Shown here piece after piece: positions 2,020-51,586 of a stretch of DNA of 64,000 bases. The translations under genes were made by a program, and so were the position numbers. Numbering within the stretch: the first letter of the stretch is position 1; the number at the start of each line of letters is the position of its first letter. Origin of the DNA: Escherichia phage EcNP1; sequence record NC_054910.1. The stretch is one strand, 5' to 3'. The notes under the pieces are model-generated. The model did no database searches and was not told the origin of the DNA. It was given only the letters and a program-made list of their open reading frames with translations.

Positions 2020-2285
2020 TGCTCATCCTTCAAGGTTTGGTTTACAGCTCTATTATAAATCAATTCATCATTAAGCTCAGGCAAAGACTTATGATATGTA
2101 GTTCTAACTTTATTTCCTTGCATCCAGTGCTTGACGTAAATGAAACCTTGCTCTACACATTTTTTAAAAATTCGTTCGTCTTTTTGAGCTCGAAATTCTG
2201 GATTGCATCTAAAAAATTGATTTACGTGACCGTAATCACGTGTAGTATTACCTTCATTTTCATAAATAGTGTGAACGACAAACAT
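2016..2285 (-). CDS. hypothetical protein (30.1 position)
   Basis: 89-aa ORF, overlaps ligase start by 4 nt. Confidence 0.6.
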   Translation of the reverse strand: MFVVHTIYENEGNTTRDYGHVNQFFRCNPEFRAQKDERIFKKCVEQGFIYVKHWMQGNKVRTTYHKSLPELNDELIYNRAVNQTLKDEQ

Positions 2286-3124
2286 TAGAATGCTCCTTGA
2301 AAAATATTATCACCACTAGTAGGTCTATTATACAAATACTCTATGCCACCAGGTTTAATATAGTTCCATGTCTGAAACGGATGTGTCTGATATGGATGAT
2401 ATAGATGATTATAAGGATTTAATCCAAGCGTTCTCCAGGTAGTGTTCCAAGGAAAAGAATCGTTTTTAACCATCTTCTCAATTAAATCTTTTATAGCTTT
2501 TTCACTATCAAAACTTTCTTTATTTTCCTTCGGCGAAAAAAGCTTATTTTCTACATCATTCCATGTATAAACTCGCTGCGCAGTTTTTGGAATATTGTCA
2601 CGCTCTCCTCGAGCCATCCAATAAACTGGAACATTTAATATTTCACTCGCATGATCGCAGTGATGAGCGAGATCGTCAATATAACAAATTACGTTATATT
2701 TCTCTTTTGCCTTTTTGAACAGCTCTTCTTTTGAAGAATCATGACCACACATCATTACTTCTGAGAAGGCACCGGGAAAAAGAGCATTCAAATTAAATTG
2801 ACGATTCAACAGAGCGTCAATAGAATCACCCAATGCTGTAACAGCTACAAAATTATAATCTTCTTTTAATTTGTTAATTACACACAGGGCATCTTTATAC
2901 GGAGACAAGTAACGAATAAAATCTGAACGATTGTATTTTTCAATTAACTTGACGCCAAGTTCTTCGTCACAATTAAAGAGTTTACCTGGAGAAATAAATT
3001 TCTCATCTTGGATCATTTTTAAAATATGTTCTAATGGAAGATTATATTTTTGAGCAAAATAAGGAAGGCCTGATTGCCAGCTTAAACAAACTCCATCAAT
3101 ATCAGTTAAAATAGTTGGCTTCAT
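2285..3124 (-). CDS. hypothetical protein with HAD-like N-terminal DxDGV motif (30.2 position)
   Basis: 279 aa; N-terminus ILTDIDGVCLSW resembles HAD hydrolase motif I. Confidence 0.6.
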   Translation of the reverse strand: MKPTILTDIDGVCLSWQSGLPYFAQKYNLPLEHILKMIQDEKFISPGKLFNCDEELGVKLIEKYNRSDFIRYLSPYKDALCVINKLKEDYNFVAVTALGDSIDALLNRQFNLNALFPGAFSEVMMCGHDSSKEELFKKAKEKYNVICYIDDLAHHCDHASEILNVPVYWMARGERDNIPKTAQRVYTWNDVENKLFSPKENKESFDSEKAIKDLIEKMVKNDSFPWNTTWRTLGLNPYNHLYHPYQTHPFQTWNYIKPGGIEYLYNRPTSGDNIFQGAF

Positions 3125-3585
3125 AGAGAGTCTCTTAATAGGTTTAACACATCAATAAATTCAGCTTCGGTTAGTATTGTATCATCTTTTGTTAGACCAC
3201 TAGCCATGCTGTGCTTCAAAACTTTTCCTTTCGAGGCTTGTAATGCATCACGAAAGCCCCTGTTTTGGATCGCTGCTTCAAAATATGCATTTGTGTATAA
3301 TTCTTTCCATGCTGGAGAGTATCTTGAAAATGGAACTCCAAGCCAGAACAACGTGCCACGGTCCTGAGCTCTAGCATAAGCTCGTCCAGCTTTTTGCGCG
3401 TCCAATCCGGACATCCCAAATATACGTCTTTGCTGTTCAACATTTTTCACCTTACATCCTTGGAGGAATCCTTCGAGACCTCCAAATTGGATACCATCCA
3501 TAACGAAAGGCCATTGGGCGAAATTGCTTAATGCACATGATGGCCATCTAAAATTGCTTCTAATCTCTAGCTCAGACATTTTCAA
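3121..3585 (-). CDS. YbiA/DUF1768-like protein (30.3 position)
   Basis: 154 aa; ALSNFAQWPFVMDGIQFGGLEGFLQGCK resembles the YbiA N-glycosidase family signature. Confidence 0.6.
   Translation of the reverse strand: MKMSELEIRSNFRWPSCALSNFAQWPFVMDGIQFGGLEGFLQGCKVKNVEQQRRIFGMSGLDAQKAGRAYARAQDRGTLFWLGVPFSRYSPAWKELYTNAYFEAAIQNRGFRDALQASKGKVLKHSMASGLTKDDTILTEAEFIDVLNLLRDSL
3216..3443 (-). CDS. nested alternative-frame ORF inside 30.3 (30.3'-like)
   Basis: 75-aa ORF fully inside the previous gene in another frame; T4 annotation carries a comparable 30.3' ORF. Confidence 0.35.
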   Translation of the reverse strand: MLNSKDVYLGCPDWTRKKLDELMLELRTVARCSGLEFHFQDTLQHGKNYTQMHILKQRSKTGAFVMHYKPRKEKF

Positions 3586-3778
3586 TACTTATAATTTCAA
3601 CATCAGCCCAATGACCATAGCAAGGAAGACGAAATTCAATTGGCCAGTTAGGGTCCTTTTCTAATATAATAGACTTAACTTGCGGTTCTTCATGTTCATC
3701 GGTATACGGACCTTTATATGTTACTTTATATGTAACCTTAATGTACTGAATTCCAAAAATCTTATTAATTATATTCAT
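3572..3778 (-). CDS. hypothetical protein (68 aa)
   Basis: ORF track; tightly packed same-strand gene string. Confidence 0.5.
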   Translation of the reverse strand: MNIINKIFGIQYIKVTYKVTYKGPYTDEHEEPQVKSIILEKDPNWPIEFRLPCYGHWADVEIISIENV

Positions 3779-20007: not shown

Positions 20008-20065
20008 TTTTATTCTCCTCAGTAATTGATAGGGTAATAGTATCACACTACTACCCAGAAGTAAA

Positions 20066-20467
20066 CTACTTTTTGAAAGTTTTTCGCAAAAGTTCAATGA
20101 TTTCATCTACATTGTTTTCGTCTACAATGCAGTGAATTTTTGTTACGCCAGAAATCTTATCTTCGACTTCATCTTCTTCAGAAGTTGGTTCTTTATACTC
20201 GCGGAAACAATAAAACTCTTCTTCACTAAGTTCAAAATAATCATTACCCATACCATCATCATTATAGATTTCGCCATTAGCACAAATGATTTCAGTTACA
20301 TAATCAAAGCCATCTAAACTTGATACTGATTTAACTTCAAACCAACCACCATTTTCTTGAATGATGCCGACCATATTAGCATTTGATGAACTAATATCAA
20401 TGAAAGATTTAATACGATGTGGATTTAACTCATATTTTTTGCCGATTTCCATTTTGATTTTCCTCAT
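20066..20467 (-). CDS. hypothetical acidic protein (133 aa)
   Basis: ORF track. Confidence 0.55.
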   Translation of the reverse strand: MRKIKMEIGKKYELNPHRIKSFIDISSSNANMVGIIQENGGWFEVKSVSSLDGFDYVTEIICANGEIYNDDGMGNDYFELSEEEFYCFREYKEPTSEEDEVEDKISGVTKIHCIVDENNVDEIIELLRKTFKK

Positions 20468-20725: not shown

Positions 20726-20768
20726 ATTATTTTCCTCTTTAATCGTCAGCAGTATTGCCGATAGTTGT

Positions 20769-20798
20769 ATAGTACCATGGAAGAACAGGGATGTAAAC
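20769..20798 (-). promoter_or_regulatory. early promoter downstream of the gene 32 terminator
   Basis: Minus strand A/T-rich upstream region, GTTTAC, 18-nt spacer, TGGTACTATAC. Confidence 0.5.
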
Positions 20799-20822
20799 TG
20801 TTTTGTGAAAAAATTTTTGAAA

Positions 20823-37092: not shown

Positions 37093-37133
37093 TTTCTAAT
37101 CTCCGTAATTCTGTATCAGTAGTTGATAGTTGT

Positions 37134-37163
37134 ATAGTACCACAGTATGCTTTGGTTGTAAAC
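37134..37163 (-). promoter_or_regulatory. early promoter for motA
   Basis: Minus strand AAAATTTTTTCACAAAACGGTTTACA, 18-nt spacer, TGGTACTATAC; same cassette as at 20769 and 40990. Confidence 0.55.
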
Positions 37164-37185
37164 CGTTTTGTGAAAAAATTTTAAA

Positions 37186-40127: not shown

Positions 40128-40241
40128 TCACATAAATCCAAAGTAAGCGTTTAATACATCAATCATTAAAACGATTGGGAATATACTCAAAACTACTAGT
40201 ATTATAACTACATTCCATATAGCTTTAACAATCTTTTTCAT
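40128..40241 (-). CDS. mini hydrophobic peptide (37 aa)
   Basis: Read by eye: MKKIVKAIWNVVIILVVLSIFPIVLMIDVLNAYFGFM; GGAGGA RBS; first gene after an early promoter. Confidence 0.4.
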   Translation of the reverse strand: MKKIVKAIWNVVIILVVLSIFPIVLMIDVLNAYFGFM

Positions 40242-40269
40242 TTTCTGTTCCTCCGTAGTTGATAGAGTA

Positions 40270-40299
40270 ATAATACCACAGAGGAACAGTCTTGTAAAC
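40270..40299 (-). promoter_or_regulatory. early promoter in the ndd-denB mini-ORF cluster
   Basis: Minus strand A10 tract, GTTTAC, 17-nt spacer, TGGTATTATTA. Confidence 0.5.
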
Positions 40300-40310
40300 A
40301 ACTTTTTTTT

Positions 40311-40761: not shown

Positions 40762-41063
40762 TAATCCGCTAAAAGATCGACAATTGCATCACGAAGACAC
40801 TTATTCGCAATACGTTTAAGAGCAATTTCAGTTTCTGGAGCATTTTGAATAATCATTGAATTCAATTCAGCCTCAGCAAACTGAAGTTCTTTAACTAATT
40901 CAGCTTTATATTTTCCTTGCCCTTTCTTAGCTTTTGCTCGTTTTAATTCAGCTGTAGTAAACATTTTATTCTCCAAATCCGTATCAGTTGATAGTTGTAT
41001 AGTACCACAGTCCTTGTGGTATGTAAACTGTTTTGTGAAAATTTTTAAATGGAAAGATACCAT
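40758..41063 (-). CDS. hypothetical protein (101 aa)
   Basis: ORF track; early promoter upstream. Confidence 0.5.
   Translation of the reverse strand: MVSFHLKIFTKQFTYHKDCGTIQLSTDTDLENKMFTTAELKRAKAKKGQGKYKAELVKELQFAEAELNSMIIQNAPETEIALKRIANKCLRDAIVDLLADY
40990..41019 (-). promoter_or_regulatory. early promoter
   Basis: Minus strand GTTTACA, spacer, TGGTACTATAC; copy of the 37134 cassette. Confidence 0.5.
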
Positions 41064-47397: not shown

Positions 47398-47667
47398 TTA
47401 TTTAAAACGGATAGTCGAATCCTTGAAGAATAGACCAGAACATACTGTTCCTTCTACTTTCTGCCCGGTAGGTCCAATAGCACGAAATCCAGTGTGTTGG
47501 AAATCATTTTCAGAGCAACCGAACCAATTATATCCAGTGATTTCAATATTAGTAAAACCACTTGAAGACAAAACTTTGGTTGCATTATCGGCATCAGTAC
47601 ATCCTACTAAAGATACTGCTAATACTAATGCCGCGATAGAACGATTAACATATTTCATAATTTTCAC
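47398..47667 (-). CDS. predicted lipoprotein (89 aa)
   Basis: N-terminus MKIMKYVNRSIAALVLAVSLVGC has signal peptide plus lipobox. Confidence 0.6.
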   Translation of the reverse strand: MKIMKYVNRSIAALVLAVSLVGCTDADNATKVLSSSGFTNIEITGYNWFGCSENDFQHTGFRAIGPTGQKVEGTVCSGLFFKDSTIRFK

Positions 47668-48041
47668 TTAAATTTAATGGCTTGAAGGAGACTAATAATT
47701 CTCAAGCGACTTCTTTCATCTTTAACTGTAAAAGAAAGAGGGTCACCAGATTTCATAGTGATGGTGCATCCAAAATCAAAATCTTCTGTAACTTCTTCGA
47801 ATAGGTCAAATTCTTCATCATAAATTAGAACATTACTCTGAAAACTGTGAAGAATTTTTCCATCATTTCCAGATGCTGTACTAATCATTGTAACATTATT
47901 ACCCTTCATATCTTCAACGATAAATTCGCCTGTAGATATTACATTACTAATAGAACCATTCCTATAAATAGCAGAAAATAGATATTTCTTTTCTTCACCT
48001 TCGCGAATGCGATATTTCTTACCGATTTTAAACATAATCAT
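47664..48041 (-). CDS. hypothetical protein (125 aa)
   Basis: ORF track; coupled. Confidence 0.55.
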   Translation of the reverse strand: MIMFKIGKKYRIREGEEKKYLFSAIYRNGSISNVISTGEFIVEDMKGNNVTMISTASGNDGKILHSFQSNVLIYDEEFDLFEEVTEDFDFGCTITMKSGDPLSFTVKDERSRLRIISLLQAIKFK

Positions 48042-48636: not shown

Positions 48637-48851
48637 TAATAAATTTCCTTCCAGTAAGTTGTGCCATCTTCAGTAATTTCACGAAATACACCGTAAATTG
48701 GCTGTTTATCACCAACCTTTTCATACACATAAACCGAAGTCAAGTGAGTAAACTTAACGGTATGTTCCTTTTGAACCACTACCAAATCTGGATCGAATAA
48801 TACATCTTCAAATTCGTCATTAGTGCAGTTCTGAACAATTTTACGTTTCAT
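48636..48851 (-). CDS. hypothetical protein (71 aa), cef position
   Basis: ORF track; size equals T4 Cef; assignment by position and size only. Confidence 0.5.
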
Positions 48852-48864
48852 TACAATTTCCTCA

Positions 48865-49146
48865 TTAATTGAACAGTGGAGCGATGCGTTTCAGAAGAGT
48901 AGCAGCACCTTTGGCAAATTTTACATCATGAAAAACAGTTTCTTCTTCCGTTACAACACGAACTTTAATGTTTTCACAATCCCAATTTTTGCGAACAATC
49001 TTCAAAAGCTGCAGTAAATCTTTACATTCAGCAATATCGATAACACACCCACGAGAATCTTCCATTATCGCACGATAACCGTAAGCCATACCATAATCGT
49101 TGAAAGATTGCTCGATGATAATTAAGTTTTCCATTTTATTCTCCAA
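48865..49146 (-). CDS. hypothetical protein (93 aa)
   Basis: ORF track. Confidence 0.5.
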   Translation of the reverse strand: MENKMENLIIIEQSFNDYGMAYGYRAIMEDSRGCVIDIAECKDLLQLLKIVRKNWDCENIKVRVVTEEETVFHDVKFAKGAATLLKRIAPLFN

Positions 49147-49231
49147 GTTGTTTTCTGTATCAGTAGTTGATATTGATATAGTACCATAATCAACTACTGA
49201 TGTATATAGTTTTATGAAAAAATTTTAAACT

Positions 49232-49720
49232 TTATGCATAGAGAGCTTTGCTATAGTGTTTAATCCAACTTTCAGGAATGACTTTGTATGTTCCTAAAAA
49301 TACCACGTTATACAACTTAACGCCATCTTCTACCCACTGATCGGTAATGTATGCGCACATAGCACGAGTATAAACAGCCGCTCCATCATCTTTGATAAAT
49401 TTAAATTCACAAGGAGAAACGAACTTAATAGCCTGACCGAGTTTCCACTTAAAATCTACACCTACATGTGAAGTATCAATCGTTTCAATTCCTTTAGCAG
49501 GAACAGCTTTCAAAAACGCAGATTCAAGAAATTTCGCACGAACATAGCCAAACTGAGGTTTAGACTTTCCATCTTTAGGAATGATACGCACTTTTACTTC
49601 AGAATCTTCATCTTTAACGCCATGTTTAAGCTGAATGCTTACAATTTCGACCAATTTTCCTGCTGCTTTAGAACGGGATTTATCAGATACACGAGCAATT
49701 TCACCAATATTAATAATCAT
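49232..49720 (-). CDS. MotB-like protein (162 aa)
   Basis: Size and position match T4 MotB; C-terminal ITDQWVEDGVKLYNVV motif shared with the next ORF. Confidence 0.55.
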   Translation of the reverse strand: MIINIGEIARVSDKSRSKAAGKLVEIVSIQLKHGVKDEDSEVKVRIIPKDGKSKPQFGYVRAKFLESAFLKAVPAKGIETIDTSHVGVDFKWKLGQAIKFVSPCEFKFIKDDGAAVYTRAMCAYITDQWVEDGVKLYNVVFLGTYKVIPESWIKHYSKALYA

Positions 49721-49765
49721 AGTTATCTCTCACTTGTTAAAAAGATTTTATACTCCACGGGACCA

Positions 49766-49794
49766 TTATACTCTGGTCCCAAGAGTTTGTAAAC
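49766..49794 (-). promoter_or_regulatory. early promoter upstream of the MotB-like gene
   Basis: Minus strand GTTTAC, 17-nt spacer, TATAAT, flanked by GGGACC/GGTCCC inverted repeat. Confidence 0.55.
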
Positions 49795-49796
49795 TA

Positions 49797-50336
49797 TTAA
49801 TTTAAAATAGCTACCACTGCACTACGAGGTACTACACTAAAATCACCTGCATGAACAACGTTCAGAAGTTCAACACCATCTTCAATCCACTGGTCTGTTA
49901 CCCAACCACAGACCGAAATAAATGGAGTCTTGATAGCTACCGCACGAGTCAAAAGGTCAGTAGGATCGCATTCTTGGAAGAGGATGAACTCTGCTTCAAA
50001 GACTATAGTTTTAATTACTTCATCATTATCTAAACGGTGTACTCGAATCACGTAAGCTTTATTCTTATCATGCCAGTTACTTTTTGAAAAGCTTTTAACC
50101 ACAAACTCGCCTTCACCAAAAACATTAGTCAATGCTTTATAACCCAAATTTAGTTCAGTAGTTTTAATTTCAGTTTCAACCAGTTTGTAGATTTTGCCGA
50201 TTTCAATAGCGGTAGTCATAGTAGGTTCCTTAATTTCCAGTGGTTTAACAGGGCATACATAAGTGCTTACAACATCAAAATCAATCAGTTTAGCTACCGG
50301 ATTCGGTGTGTATTCAGGATTATAATTAAATTTCAT
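49797..50336 (-). CDS. paralog of the MotB-like protein (179 aa)
   Basis: C-terminal VTDQWIEDGVELLNVV aligns with the 162-aa neighbour. Confidence 0.55.
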   Translation of the reverse strand: MKFNYNPEYTPNPVAKLIDFDVVSTYVCPVKPLEIKEPTMTTAIEIGKIYKLVETEIKTTELNLGYKALTNVFGEGEFVVKSFSKSNWHDKNKAYVIRVHRLDNDEVIKTIVFEAEFILFQECDPTDLLTRAVAIKTPFISVCGWVTDQWIEDGVELLNVVHAGDFSVVPRSAVVAILN

Positions 50337-50338
50337 AA

Positions 50339-50878
50339 TTATCTCATTTCAATAAAATCTACGAGTTCAGCATGGGATTTGCGGAACATTACTTGGTGTC
50401 CACCAATGACAACTTGATCATCTGGCACTTCGTATACAGCAAGATAAAATCCTTTAGAAGATAATTCTTCACGCTCTTCTCGTGTGAACCATCTCATCAT
50501 ATCATATTCGCTAGCGAAAGCAAAATGATAAAGAGCTATAAACCATCCTGGAATATGATATTCTACTCCAACATAATCTTTCTTGAACTTAGTATTAATT
50601 ACTATATTAGCGTTTTTAACTAATAGTTTATCTTCGTGTGGTAAAGGAATTCTTTTATTATTATCGCTATGATGCATAAAATTAGGTCTGTCATAACCTA
50701 CGTGTAATAGCCACTCTTCGCTCCATGAATCTATTATACTCCTGTACGGCGTTATTTGAACACAAAGATTTCGACGTATTGTTATAGCATCTTCATAATC
50801 AAGAATACTAAACGATGACTCAACACGATAAATTTTCATTTTATTATCCTCAGTAGCTATGGTGTTATAATACCACAA
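50339..50878 (-). CDS. hypothetical protein (179 aa)
   Basis: ORF track; directly upstream of dexA. Confidence 0.55.
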   Translation of the reverse strand: MWYYNTIATEDNKMKIYRVESSFSILDYEDAITIRRNLCVQITPYRSIIDSWSEEWLLHVGYDRPNFMHHSDNNKRIPLPHEDKLLVKNANIVINTKFKKDYVGVEYHIPGWFIALYHFAFASEYDMMRWFTREEREELSSKGFYLAVYEVPDDQVVIGGHQVMFRKSHAELVDFIEMR

Positions 50879-50902
50879 CTAACCGAGGAAGTAAACAACT
50901 TT

Positions 50903-51586
50903 TTATCGTTTTGTTGGAAGAGATAGAGGATCGCATTCTTCCTCTGACGGAGCATCTTCAAGACCCATAGCATATCGCAAAGCATACTTCATCATCAGGA
51001 TGTCTTTCGCACAGTCATGAATAGAATCATGTGCAACGAATCCATCCAAAGTTCCCTTTGGAAGAGGACACGTGGTCATATCACGAACAAGGAGAAGTGC
51101 TTCAATTCTGGTACGAATATCACGCTGATTCCAGAATTTACATGGTTCTAACTTAAATGTGTCAAGCTCATTCTCAGAAACGCCATTAAGACGTTGAATA
51201 TCACGAATGAGATCGACTAAAATTGGAAAATCAAACGACATTCCACGGCACCAGCCATGAGATTTCCAAGGATCGATGTTATGTGCATTGATGTAATCAT
51301 TAAATTTTACAATACCATCGATAGTGCTTACATCTTCATCTGATGATGCAATATTTTTTCGAGCTTCAGGAGACTGATTTTTCCACCATTCAATAGTGCT
51401 TTTAGTAAAAAGACGATGTCCTTTTTGGCTTTTTAAATCAAACTTGATTTTAATGCCGCGTGAAACTAATTCATCGAATGTTTCAACTACTTCTGGATTA
51501 GGGTCAAAGGCAATAACAGCCAAATCAATAACAGCTGCCTTTTCACCGCTTCCCATTGTTTCAAAATCTATAATAAAATCAAACAT
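50903..51586 (-). CDS. dexA: exonuclease A (DEDD 3'-5' exonuclease)
   Basis: 227 aa, MFDFIIDFETMGSGEKAAVIDLAVIAF; DEDD motif I; T4 DexA length. Confidence 0.9.
   Translation of the reverse strand: MFDFIIDFETMGSGEKAAVIDLAVIAFDPNPEVVETFDELVSRGIKIKFDLKSQKGHRLFTKSTIEWWKNQSPEARKNIASSDEDVSTIDGIVKFNDYINAHNIDPWKSHGWCRGMSFDFPILVDLIRDIQRLNGVSENELDTFKLEPCKFWNQRDIRTRIEALLLVRDMTTCPLPKGTLDGFVAHDSIHDCAKDILMMKYALRYAMGLEDAPSEEECDPLSLPTKR

Follow-up and report, generated by a model that had tools for sequence, protein, structure and literature searches.

The motB Locus and Its Gene Pair

The window analyzed here, a stretch of 64,000 nucleotides from Escherichia phage EcNP1 (NC_054910.1), derives from a Tequatrovirus. 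Positions 48800-51000 are 99.5% identical to Escherichia phage vB_EcoM-G28 and match 679 phage records, nearly all of which are T4-like phages of Escherichia, Shigella, Yersinia, and Salmonella. In this region, two genes encoding proteins of 162 and 179 residues lie 76 bp apart on the minus strand, placed exactly as in a preliminary description of the window and containing the peptides quoted there (Table 1). The minus strand carries, in order of window position, a GoF-like 125-aa ORF, a zinc-ribbon ORF, goF, cef, a 93-aa ORF, and motB, followed by the 179-aa ORF, a motB.2-like ORF, dexA, two small ORFs, and dda. The corresponding order in T4 is goF, cef, motB, motB.1, motB.2, dexA, dexA.1, dexA.2, and dda, relative to which the GoF-like 125-aa ORF and the 93-aa ORF are extra. 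Gene order relative to T4 thus assigns the pair to the early, non-essential cef-dexA region of T4-type genomes; in this T4-like phage, the 162-aa gene is motB and the 179-aa gene occupies the motB.1 position.

Table 1. Features of the motB region of the window, with the homologous T4 segment in the last line. Positions are those of the window unless another record is named; residue numbers are those of the encoded proteins.
Feature	Position	Strand	Basis or remark
GoF-like 125-aa ORF	47664..48041	-	phrog_622, E 1e-28; phrog_2333, E 1.6e-4; T4 has 39.1 and 39.2 there
93-aa ORF between cef and motB	48865-49146	-	phrog_3720
motB, 162 aa	49232..49720 (stop codon included)	-	ORF; Pfam PF17613 over residues 1-162, E 5.1e-108
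MotB C-domain, residues 90-162, predicted five-stranded barrel, type A (FKW...TDQWVEDGVKLYN)	49235..49453	-	AF2, hhalign
Shared-module core in MotB, residues 120-151	49268..49363	-	BLASTP, tblastn
MotB N-terminal KOW-like/SH3-like barrel, residues 1-67, net charge +5	49520..49720	-	
Promoter-like site directly 5' of motB, between both genes	49765..49793	-	TTTACA-17 nt-TATAAT, 11/12 matches
Gene at the motB.1 position, 179 aa	49797..50336 (stop codon included)	-	ORF; phrog_2333, E 2e-81; position relative to T4
C-domain of the 179-aa protein, residues 124-179, predicted five-stranded barrel, type B (DPTDLL...TDQWIEDGVELLN)	49800..49967	-	AF2, hhalign
Shared-module core in the 179-aa protein, residues 141-172	49821..49916	-	BLASTP, tblastn
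LSm-like/SH3-like barrel of the 179-aa protein, GoF family, residues 44-123	49968..50207	-	AF2, hhalign, Foldseek
N-terminal leader of the 179-aa protein, residues 1-41, predicted disordered	50214..50336	-	pLDDT < 50
DFDVVSTY motif of the 179-aa protein, residues 19-26	50259-50282	-	Conserved, within the leader
Frameshift region in T4	NC_000866.4 7199-7399		Homologous to window 49800-49920

The 162-aa ORF is identified as MotB by its gene order relative to T4, by its match to the Pfam family PF17613 (motB; 358.5 bits over residues 1-162, against a curated cutoff of 25 bits), and by 153/162 identical residues (94%) over the full length of T4 MotB. It resembles the T4 protein (PF17613; gene motB, T4p011) in position and two-domain layout, with nine substitutions and nothing else of note setting the two apart, and it possesses the KOW-like N-domain with a VSxxSRSKxAG motif that characterizes the MotB family. 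The 179-aa protein also scores above the PF17613 cutoff, with 34.3 bits at residues 141-174 only (profile positions 120-153). A motif check found no KOW motif in it and hhalign gave no N-terminal alignment to MotB; without the KOW N-domain, it is a member of the MotB family only by virtue of its C-domain. Searches retrieved 197 homologues of the 179-aa protein at E ≤ 0.001. Among the 120 matches listed, identities range from 72 to 98% and nearly all alignments are full-length, and all listed homologues except one carry a precomputed PF17613 match. Database entries annotate the protein as "motB-like" or as a "transcriptional regulator". A sequence search of the PDB with both proteins returned nothing significant (best E 0.63).

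The promoter-like site between the two genes is the top-scoring promoter-like match of the scanned region. An inverted repeat, GGGACC/GGTCCC, encloses its -10 hexamer in the loop, and the promoter-like sequence is also conserved in T4; a promoter role is suggested by the sequence. Repeated intergenic sequences flank these early genes, with 72-79% identity among copies within the window. The intergenic sequence downstream of motB (49132-49229), which contains an inverted repeat of ~12 bp (CAGTAGTTGATA...TATCAACTACTG), has similar copies at 37109-37185, 40962-41049, and 20760-20817, and that at 50833-50904 has similar copies at 20008-20074 and 40235-40307. These repeats probably serve early transcription units as common promoter, terminator, or processing elements.

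The Shared C-Terminal Domain

The C-termini of the two proteins align with statistics well beyond chance. BLASTP pairs residues 120-151 of MotB with residues 141-172 of the 179-aa protein without a gap (17/32 identical, 25/32 positive, E 1e-11), and hhalign of the corresponding families, represented by alignments of 35 MotB sequences and 21 relatives of the 179-aa protein, pairs MotB 94-157 with residues 129-178 at a probability of 99.1% (E 9.2e-19, 51 aligned columns). Cross-matches among PHROG families run in both directions, with MotB 82-152 matching phrog_2333 (E 1.9e-10) and residues 124-177 of the 179-aa protein matching phrog_1671 (E 1.5e-16). Six-frame tblastn of the whole 64-kb window retrieved two copies of the module only, at E 3.6e-9 and 5.2e-9 with the full-length queries and at E of about 1e-10 to 3e-10 with C-domain queries; no third copy was found in this search, every remaining match having E > 0.4. 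At the sequence level, homology thus extends beyond the 27-residue motif and spans the entire C-terminal domain, which comprises ~55-70 residues and constitutes the C-terminal half of PF17613. Relative to MotB, the 179-aa protein displays a deletion of 11-13 residues in the first hairpin of this domain. Family alignments show D, W, E, G, and N as the invariant residues, arranged in an acidic core of the form [ST]D-x-W-x-E-[DE]-G ... L-x-N-[VI]-V.

The C-domain profile also matched four long proteins of 567-921 aa (P0243, P0249, P0250, and P0252) at E values between 1.8e-10 and 4.7e-4. These are tail-fibre-like proteins in which many GYATEQWVxxKxYLT repeats match only profile positions ~2-27, in several stretches each, by way of their likeness to the TDQWVED motif, and the similarity was judged to be a short-motif resemblance rather than homology.

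Recombination is very active in T4-type phages, and close neighbors on one strand could exchange sequence, such that the C-terminal similarity might have been kept or made by recent gene conversion rather than inherited through old common descent. A comparison of nucleotides and third codon positions largely refutes this scenario: the two modules give no match to each other in blastn, their cores are identical at only 53 of 96 nt (55%), and the third codon base is the same in only 8 of the 17 identical residues. Moreover, each of the two types of C-domain is conserved across many phages with a fixed signature, KLYN for the type found in MotB (type A, which starts with FKW) and ELLN for that of the 179-aa protein (type B, which starts with DPTDLL). 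Recent conversion is therefore very improbable, and the low nucleotide and third-base identity instead indicates that the duplication is old and has not been homogenized.

In the AF2 model of MotB (mean pLDDT 81.7), a five-stranded N-domain (residues 8-67) is connected by a disordered linker (70-86) to a five-stranded C-domain, while the model of the 179-aa protein (mean pLDDT 73.4) consists of a disordered leader (1-41), an N-domain (45-123), and a C-domain. The C-domain strands are predicted at 97-109, 115-131, 134-141, 144-149, and 153-156 in MotB (pLDDT about 90) and at 132-136, 141-152, 155-162, 165-170, and 174-178 in the 179-aa protein. Both C-domains display the same strand pattern, with a two-residue turn between β3 and β4 and a short helical turn before β5. 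These two elements are marks of SH3-like meander barrels and not of OB-folds. From the models, the shared domain is predicted to be a five-stranded SH3-like (Tudor/KOW-like) meander β-barrel. This assignment is well supported but not proven, because the fold-search output does not say which domain aligned. Tandem Tudor and tandem KOW small-barrel proteins, such as the tandem Tudor of 53BP1 and KOW6-KOW7 of Spt5, share only 8-17% identity, and the likeness is one of fold alone, with no aromatic-cage or methyl-lysine logic implied.

[quoted passage not shown] Were this correct, the shared module would be a cold-shock-like nucleic-acid-binding domain and the DNA-binding part of both proteins. The DNA binding of MotB described in the same paper (PMC7827196) would fit such a role, and viral eIF5A-like proteins also appear among the Foldseek matches of the 179-aa model (E about 5e-3). 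The strand and turn pattern of the predicted structures nevertheless supports an SH3-like barrel better than the OB-fold, which we consider unlikely.

That the two proteins have C-terminal homology is not new. Patterson-West et al. reported in 2021 a conserved C-terminal domain common to MotB and MotB.1, whose N-terminal regions differ, noted that one gene may derive from duplication of the other, and listed categories with other N-domains (PMC7827196). The shared domain and the duplication idea are therefore real but already known; protein family databases also reflect the link between MotB and MotB.1, and no new question is opened. The modest additions made here are the SH3-like fold call, an order of evolutionary events, and a warning about a frameshift in the T4 reference sequence, which could aid the design of experiments on host-takeover proteins that are still poorly understood.

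Different N-Terminal Domains and the Origin of the Pair

The N-terminal halves of MotB and the 179-aa protein do not align, whether by BLASTP or by hhalign of the families, and the preliminary description was right to call them unrelated-looking. They are different domains: that of MotB is a basic KOW-like barrel in which the VSxxSRSKxAG motif is conserved, and in the 179-aa protein a disordered leader precedes an LSm-like barrel of the GoF family. AF2 places strands of the latter barrel at 49-52, 78-85, 94-101, 107-113, and 120-123 and a helix at 60-73 (pLDDT 75-87), which reads as four to five strands with an inserted helix. Its relationship to the GoF-like 125-aa ORF, located 2 kb away, is detected by hhalign (probability 94.3%, E 9.6e-8) and by tblastn (E 0.004). 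T4 MotB.1 (P39415) emerges as a further relative from Foldseek of the 179-aa model, with E 4e-6 and a TM-score of 0.60 (normalized to the target); a profile match of the 179-aa family to the GoF proper of the window (139 aa) was negative. [quoted passage not shown] 2025, PMC12152347). The LSm-like N-domain of MotB.1 was thus already described in that study, which does not report RNA-related activity for wild-type members of the family (PMC12152347). The N-domain of the 179-aa protein, as modeled, is alike in having a bent five-stranded sheet with a helix.

The closest counterpart of the 179-aa gene in T4 is motB.1 (T4p012; P39415), located directly upstream of motB at the same locus; in the scheme of Patterson-West et al. 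(2021; PMC7827196), proteins of this type make up Categories 2 and 4. The two proteins possess the same type B C-domain (DPTDLL...GWVTDQWIEDGVELLNVVHAG...) and the same class of LSm-like N-domain, but the LSm-like domains have diverged too far for BLASTP, which aligned residues 111-151 only, and T4 MotB.1 is devoid of the 41-residue disordered leader with its DFDVVSTY sequence. Within the leader of the 179-aa protein, this sequence represents a conserved motif, D-x-D-[VIL]-x-S-[MT]-Y, after which comes a stretch that includes proline. In relatives, KOW-type proteins included, the same motif occurs at other positions, ahead of the LSm domain or immediately in front of DPTDLL. It could represent a short linear motif for interaction or what is left of a linker. 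The linker of MotB itself (ETIDTSHVGVDFKW) was considered as a degenerate DxDVxSMY plus DPTDLL segment, but the resemblance was too weak.

An exhaustive profile search with the shared core yielded only 30 cluster representatives at 50% identity, and in all small proteins carrying the module, it is located at the C-terminal end or within about 50 residues of it. In phage genomes, tblastn of the core retrieved 1683 places in 779 records; most genomes therefore carry two copies, and some carry one or three. We classified 248 family members by the type of C-domain (A or B) and of N-domain (KOW or non-KOW). Type A C-domains are joined to a KOW N-domain in 106 of 113 cases; the KOW motif is absent in the other 7, of which those listed are either short fragments or belong to the most divergent members. 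Of the members with a type B C-domain, 126 have a non-KOW N-domain and 9 a KOW one. The KOW plus type B protein is the product of the sole motB gene, at one place per genome, in T4-like phages that are more distant, namely Klebsiella Marfavirus and phages of Edwardsiella, Kosakonia, Enterobacter, and Pectobacterium. A neighbor-joining tree of the core separates types A and B and places the KOW-bearing type B sequences basal to the LSm-bearing ones; because this tree was built from 34 columns without bootstrap and was midpoint-rooted, the order of events drawn from it is tentative.

Taken with the homology of the C-domains and the adjacency of the genes, the occurrence of one, two, or three tandem copies in related phages supports the local duplication that the preliminary description proposed. 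The divergence that it envisaged afterward leaves the N-terminal difference unexplained. Under plain duplication and sequence divergence, both N-termini would descend from one ancestral N-domain and have drifted beyond recognition, a history with which the adjacency of the genes, the varying tandem copy number among relatives, and the broad SH3-like/LSm-like class of small five-stranded β-barrels to which both N-domains belong are all compatible. However, the N-domain of the 179-aa protein is detectably homologous to the GoF-like ORF (by hhalign and by PHROG cross-match) and not to the N-domain of MotB, and it contains an inserted helix that is absent from MotB. Type B C-domains carrying an unmistakable MotB-type KOW N-domain exist, and relatives with one or two LSm domains, together with the mobile DxDVxSMY motif, point to domain shuffling. 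Plain divergence is thus decidedly improbable. With GoF-like homology on one side and an outgroup KOW N-domain on a motB.1-type C-domain on the other, the N-terminus of the 179-aa protein has probably been replaced rather than diverged.

The best overall explanation, in which we place good confidence, combines homologous C-domains, different N-domains, duplication with N-domain replacement, and the putative roles considered below. An ancestral motB gene would have encoded a KOW domain, a linker with a DxDVxSxY motif, and a C-domain, and would have undergone tandem duplication. The MotB copy would have retained the KOW domain while its C-domain became the derived type A, in which the first hairpin is longer. 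In the second copy, the conservative type B C-domain would have persisted, and an LSm-like domain of the GoF paralog family, which is encoded nearby, would have taken the place of the KOW domain.

Further arrangements of these domains occur in other phages. In RB5 (KM606995), three family members are encoded in tandem at positions 2183-3595 of the retrieved stretch. One is motB.1, of 145 aa, with LSm plus type B; the other two, motB of 157 aa and a second, short MotB of 139 aa, both have KOW plus type A. Duplication at the motB locus is therefore recurrent. Some relatives display two LSm domains (P0232) or an extra N-domain (P0229). A 43-aa protein (P0245) consists of the N-terminus of MotB.2 (MKIYRVESSFSILDYED) fused to the last 26 residues of a motB.1-type C-domain. 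Its junction corresponds to the joining of about position 50838 of the window to about position 49880, which implies that two 'ED' codon pairs bound a deletion in some phage; P0245 resembles a 29-aa peptide of RB69 noted in PMC7827196.

Function of the Pair and the T4 Reference motB.1

According to a 2018 paper on the protein, MotB reportedly roughly doubles burst size. T4 MotB binds DNA tightly and non-specifically, improves phage fitness, and copurifies with the host proteins H-NS and StpA when DNA is present, and its overexpression alters H-NS-dependent repression (PMC7827196). The "poorly defined function" of the preliminary description is consequently true only in part, since experiments have established MotB as a DNA-binding protein without sequence specificity and as one that copurifies with H-NS/StpA. 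Deletion of MotB.1 left the burst size unchanged, and an RNA reporter assay showed no effect of MotB.1 (PMC12152347).

In the window, MotB has a pI of 9.3, and the 179-aa protein has a pI of 5.0, with 4.3 for its C-domain. Across the 248 family members, C-domains are acidic on average in both types, and the net charge of MotB homologues, ranging from -14 to +7, is not uniformly basic. Because the C-domains are on average acidic and their invariant residues are D, W, E, G, and N, it is conceivable, although we advance it only tentatively, that the shared barrel serves for structure or for protein contacts and that MotB binds DNA mainly via its KOW domain and type A lysines. In this mechanism, MotB would contact DNA mainly through the basic KOW domain together with lysines specific to the type A C-domain, while the invariant acidic core of the shared domain would serve as the structural or protein-contact module. 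The acidic 179-aa protein could then reach the same partner, or MotB itself, through the shared module, with its LSm-like domain supplying a different, possibly RNA-related, specificity.

A more specific role, in which the acidic C-barrel is a docking or oligomerization module rather than a nucleic-acid-binding one and mediates either MotB-MotB.1 pairing or contact with a common host partner (H-NS/StpA), is speculative and in our view unlikely. If it were true, an acidic MotB.1-type protein would modulate or redirect the action of MotB on the nucleoid, and the conserved DxDVxS(M/T)Y motif of the disordered leader would act as a short linear motif recognized by a host protein. A corollary is that the published functional tests of T4 MotB.1 may have used a product truncated within the shared domain, in which case the absent phenotype would be uninformative.

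The possibility of truncation arises from the T4 reference sequence. In NC_000866/AF158101, motB.1 encodes 119 aa and ends just after TDQWI, inside the shared C-domain. The reference contains one extra G, reading TGGATTGGAAGA where the window, ECO4, and CM8 read TGGATTGAAGA, and the frame after the frameshift continues with EDGVELLNVVHAGEYSVVPRSAVVAILN. T4 'wild' (KJ477684) possesses an intact motB.1 ORF of 143 aa, and thirteen other records of T4, T4T, RB55, and RB59 differ from the reference by one position, with a span of 130 nt against 131 nt, so the extra base is absent from them as well. At the nucleotide level, the frameshift is private to the classical reference sequence, only AF158101 and NC_000866 carrying the insertion. 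Kim et al. 2025 give MotB.1 as 13.8 kDa and do not mention a frameshift or truncation (PMC12152347); the synthetic constructs of that study, if designed on reference coordinates, would be missing the final 28 residues of this domain, the one shared with MotB. In practice, users of the T4 genome should be aware that the reference motB.1, with its product of 119 aa and 13.8 kDa, is frameshifted, and that other T4 sequences encode a protein of 143 aa.
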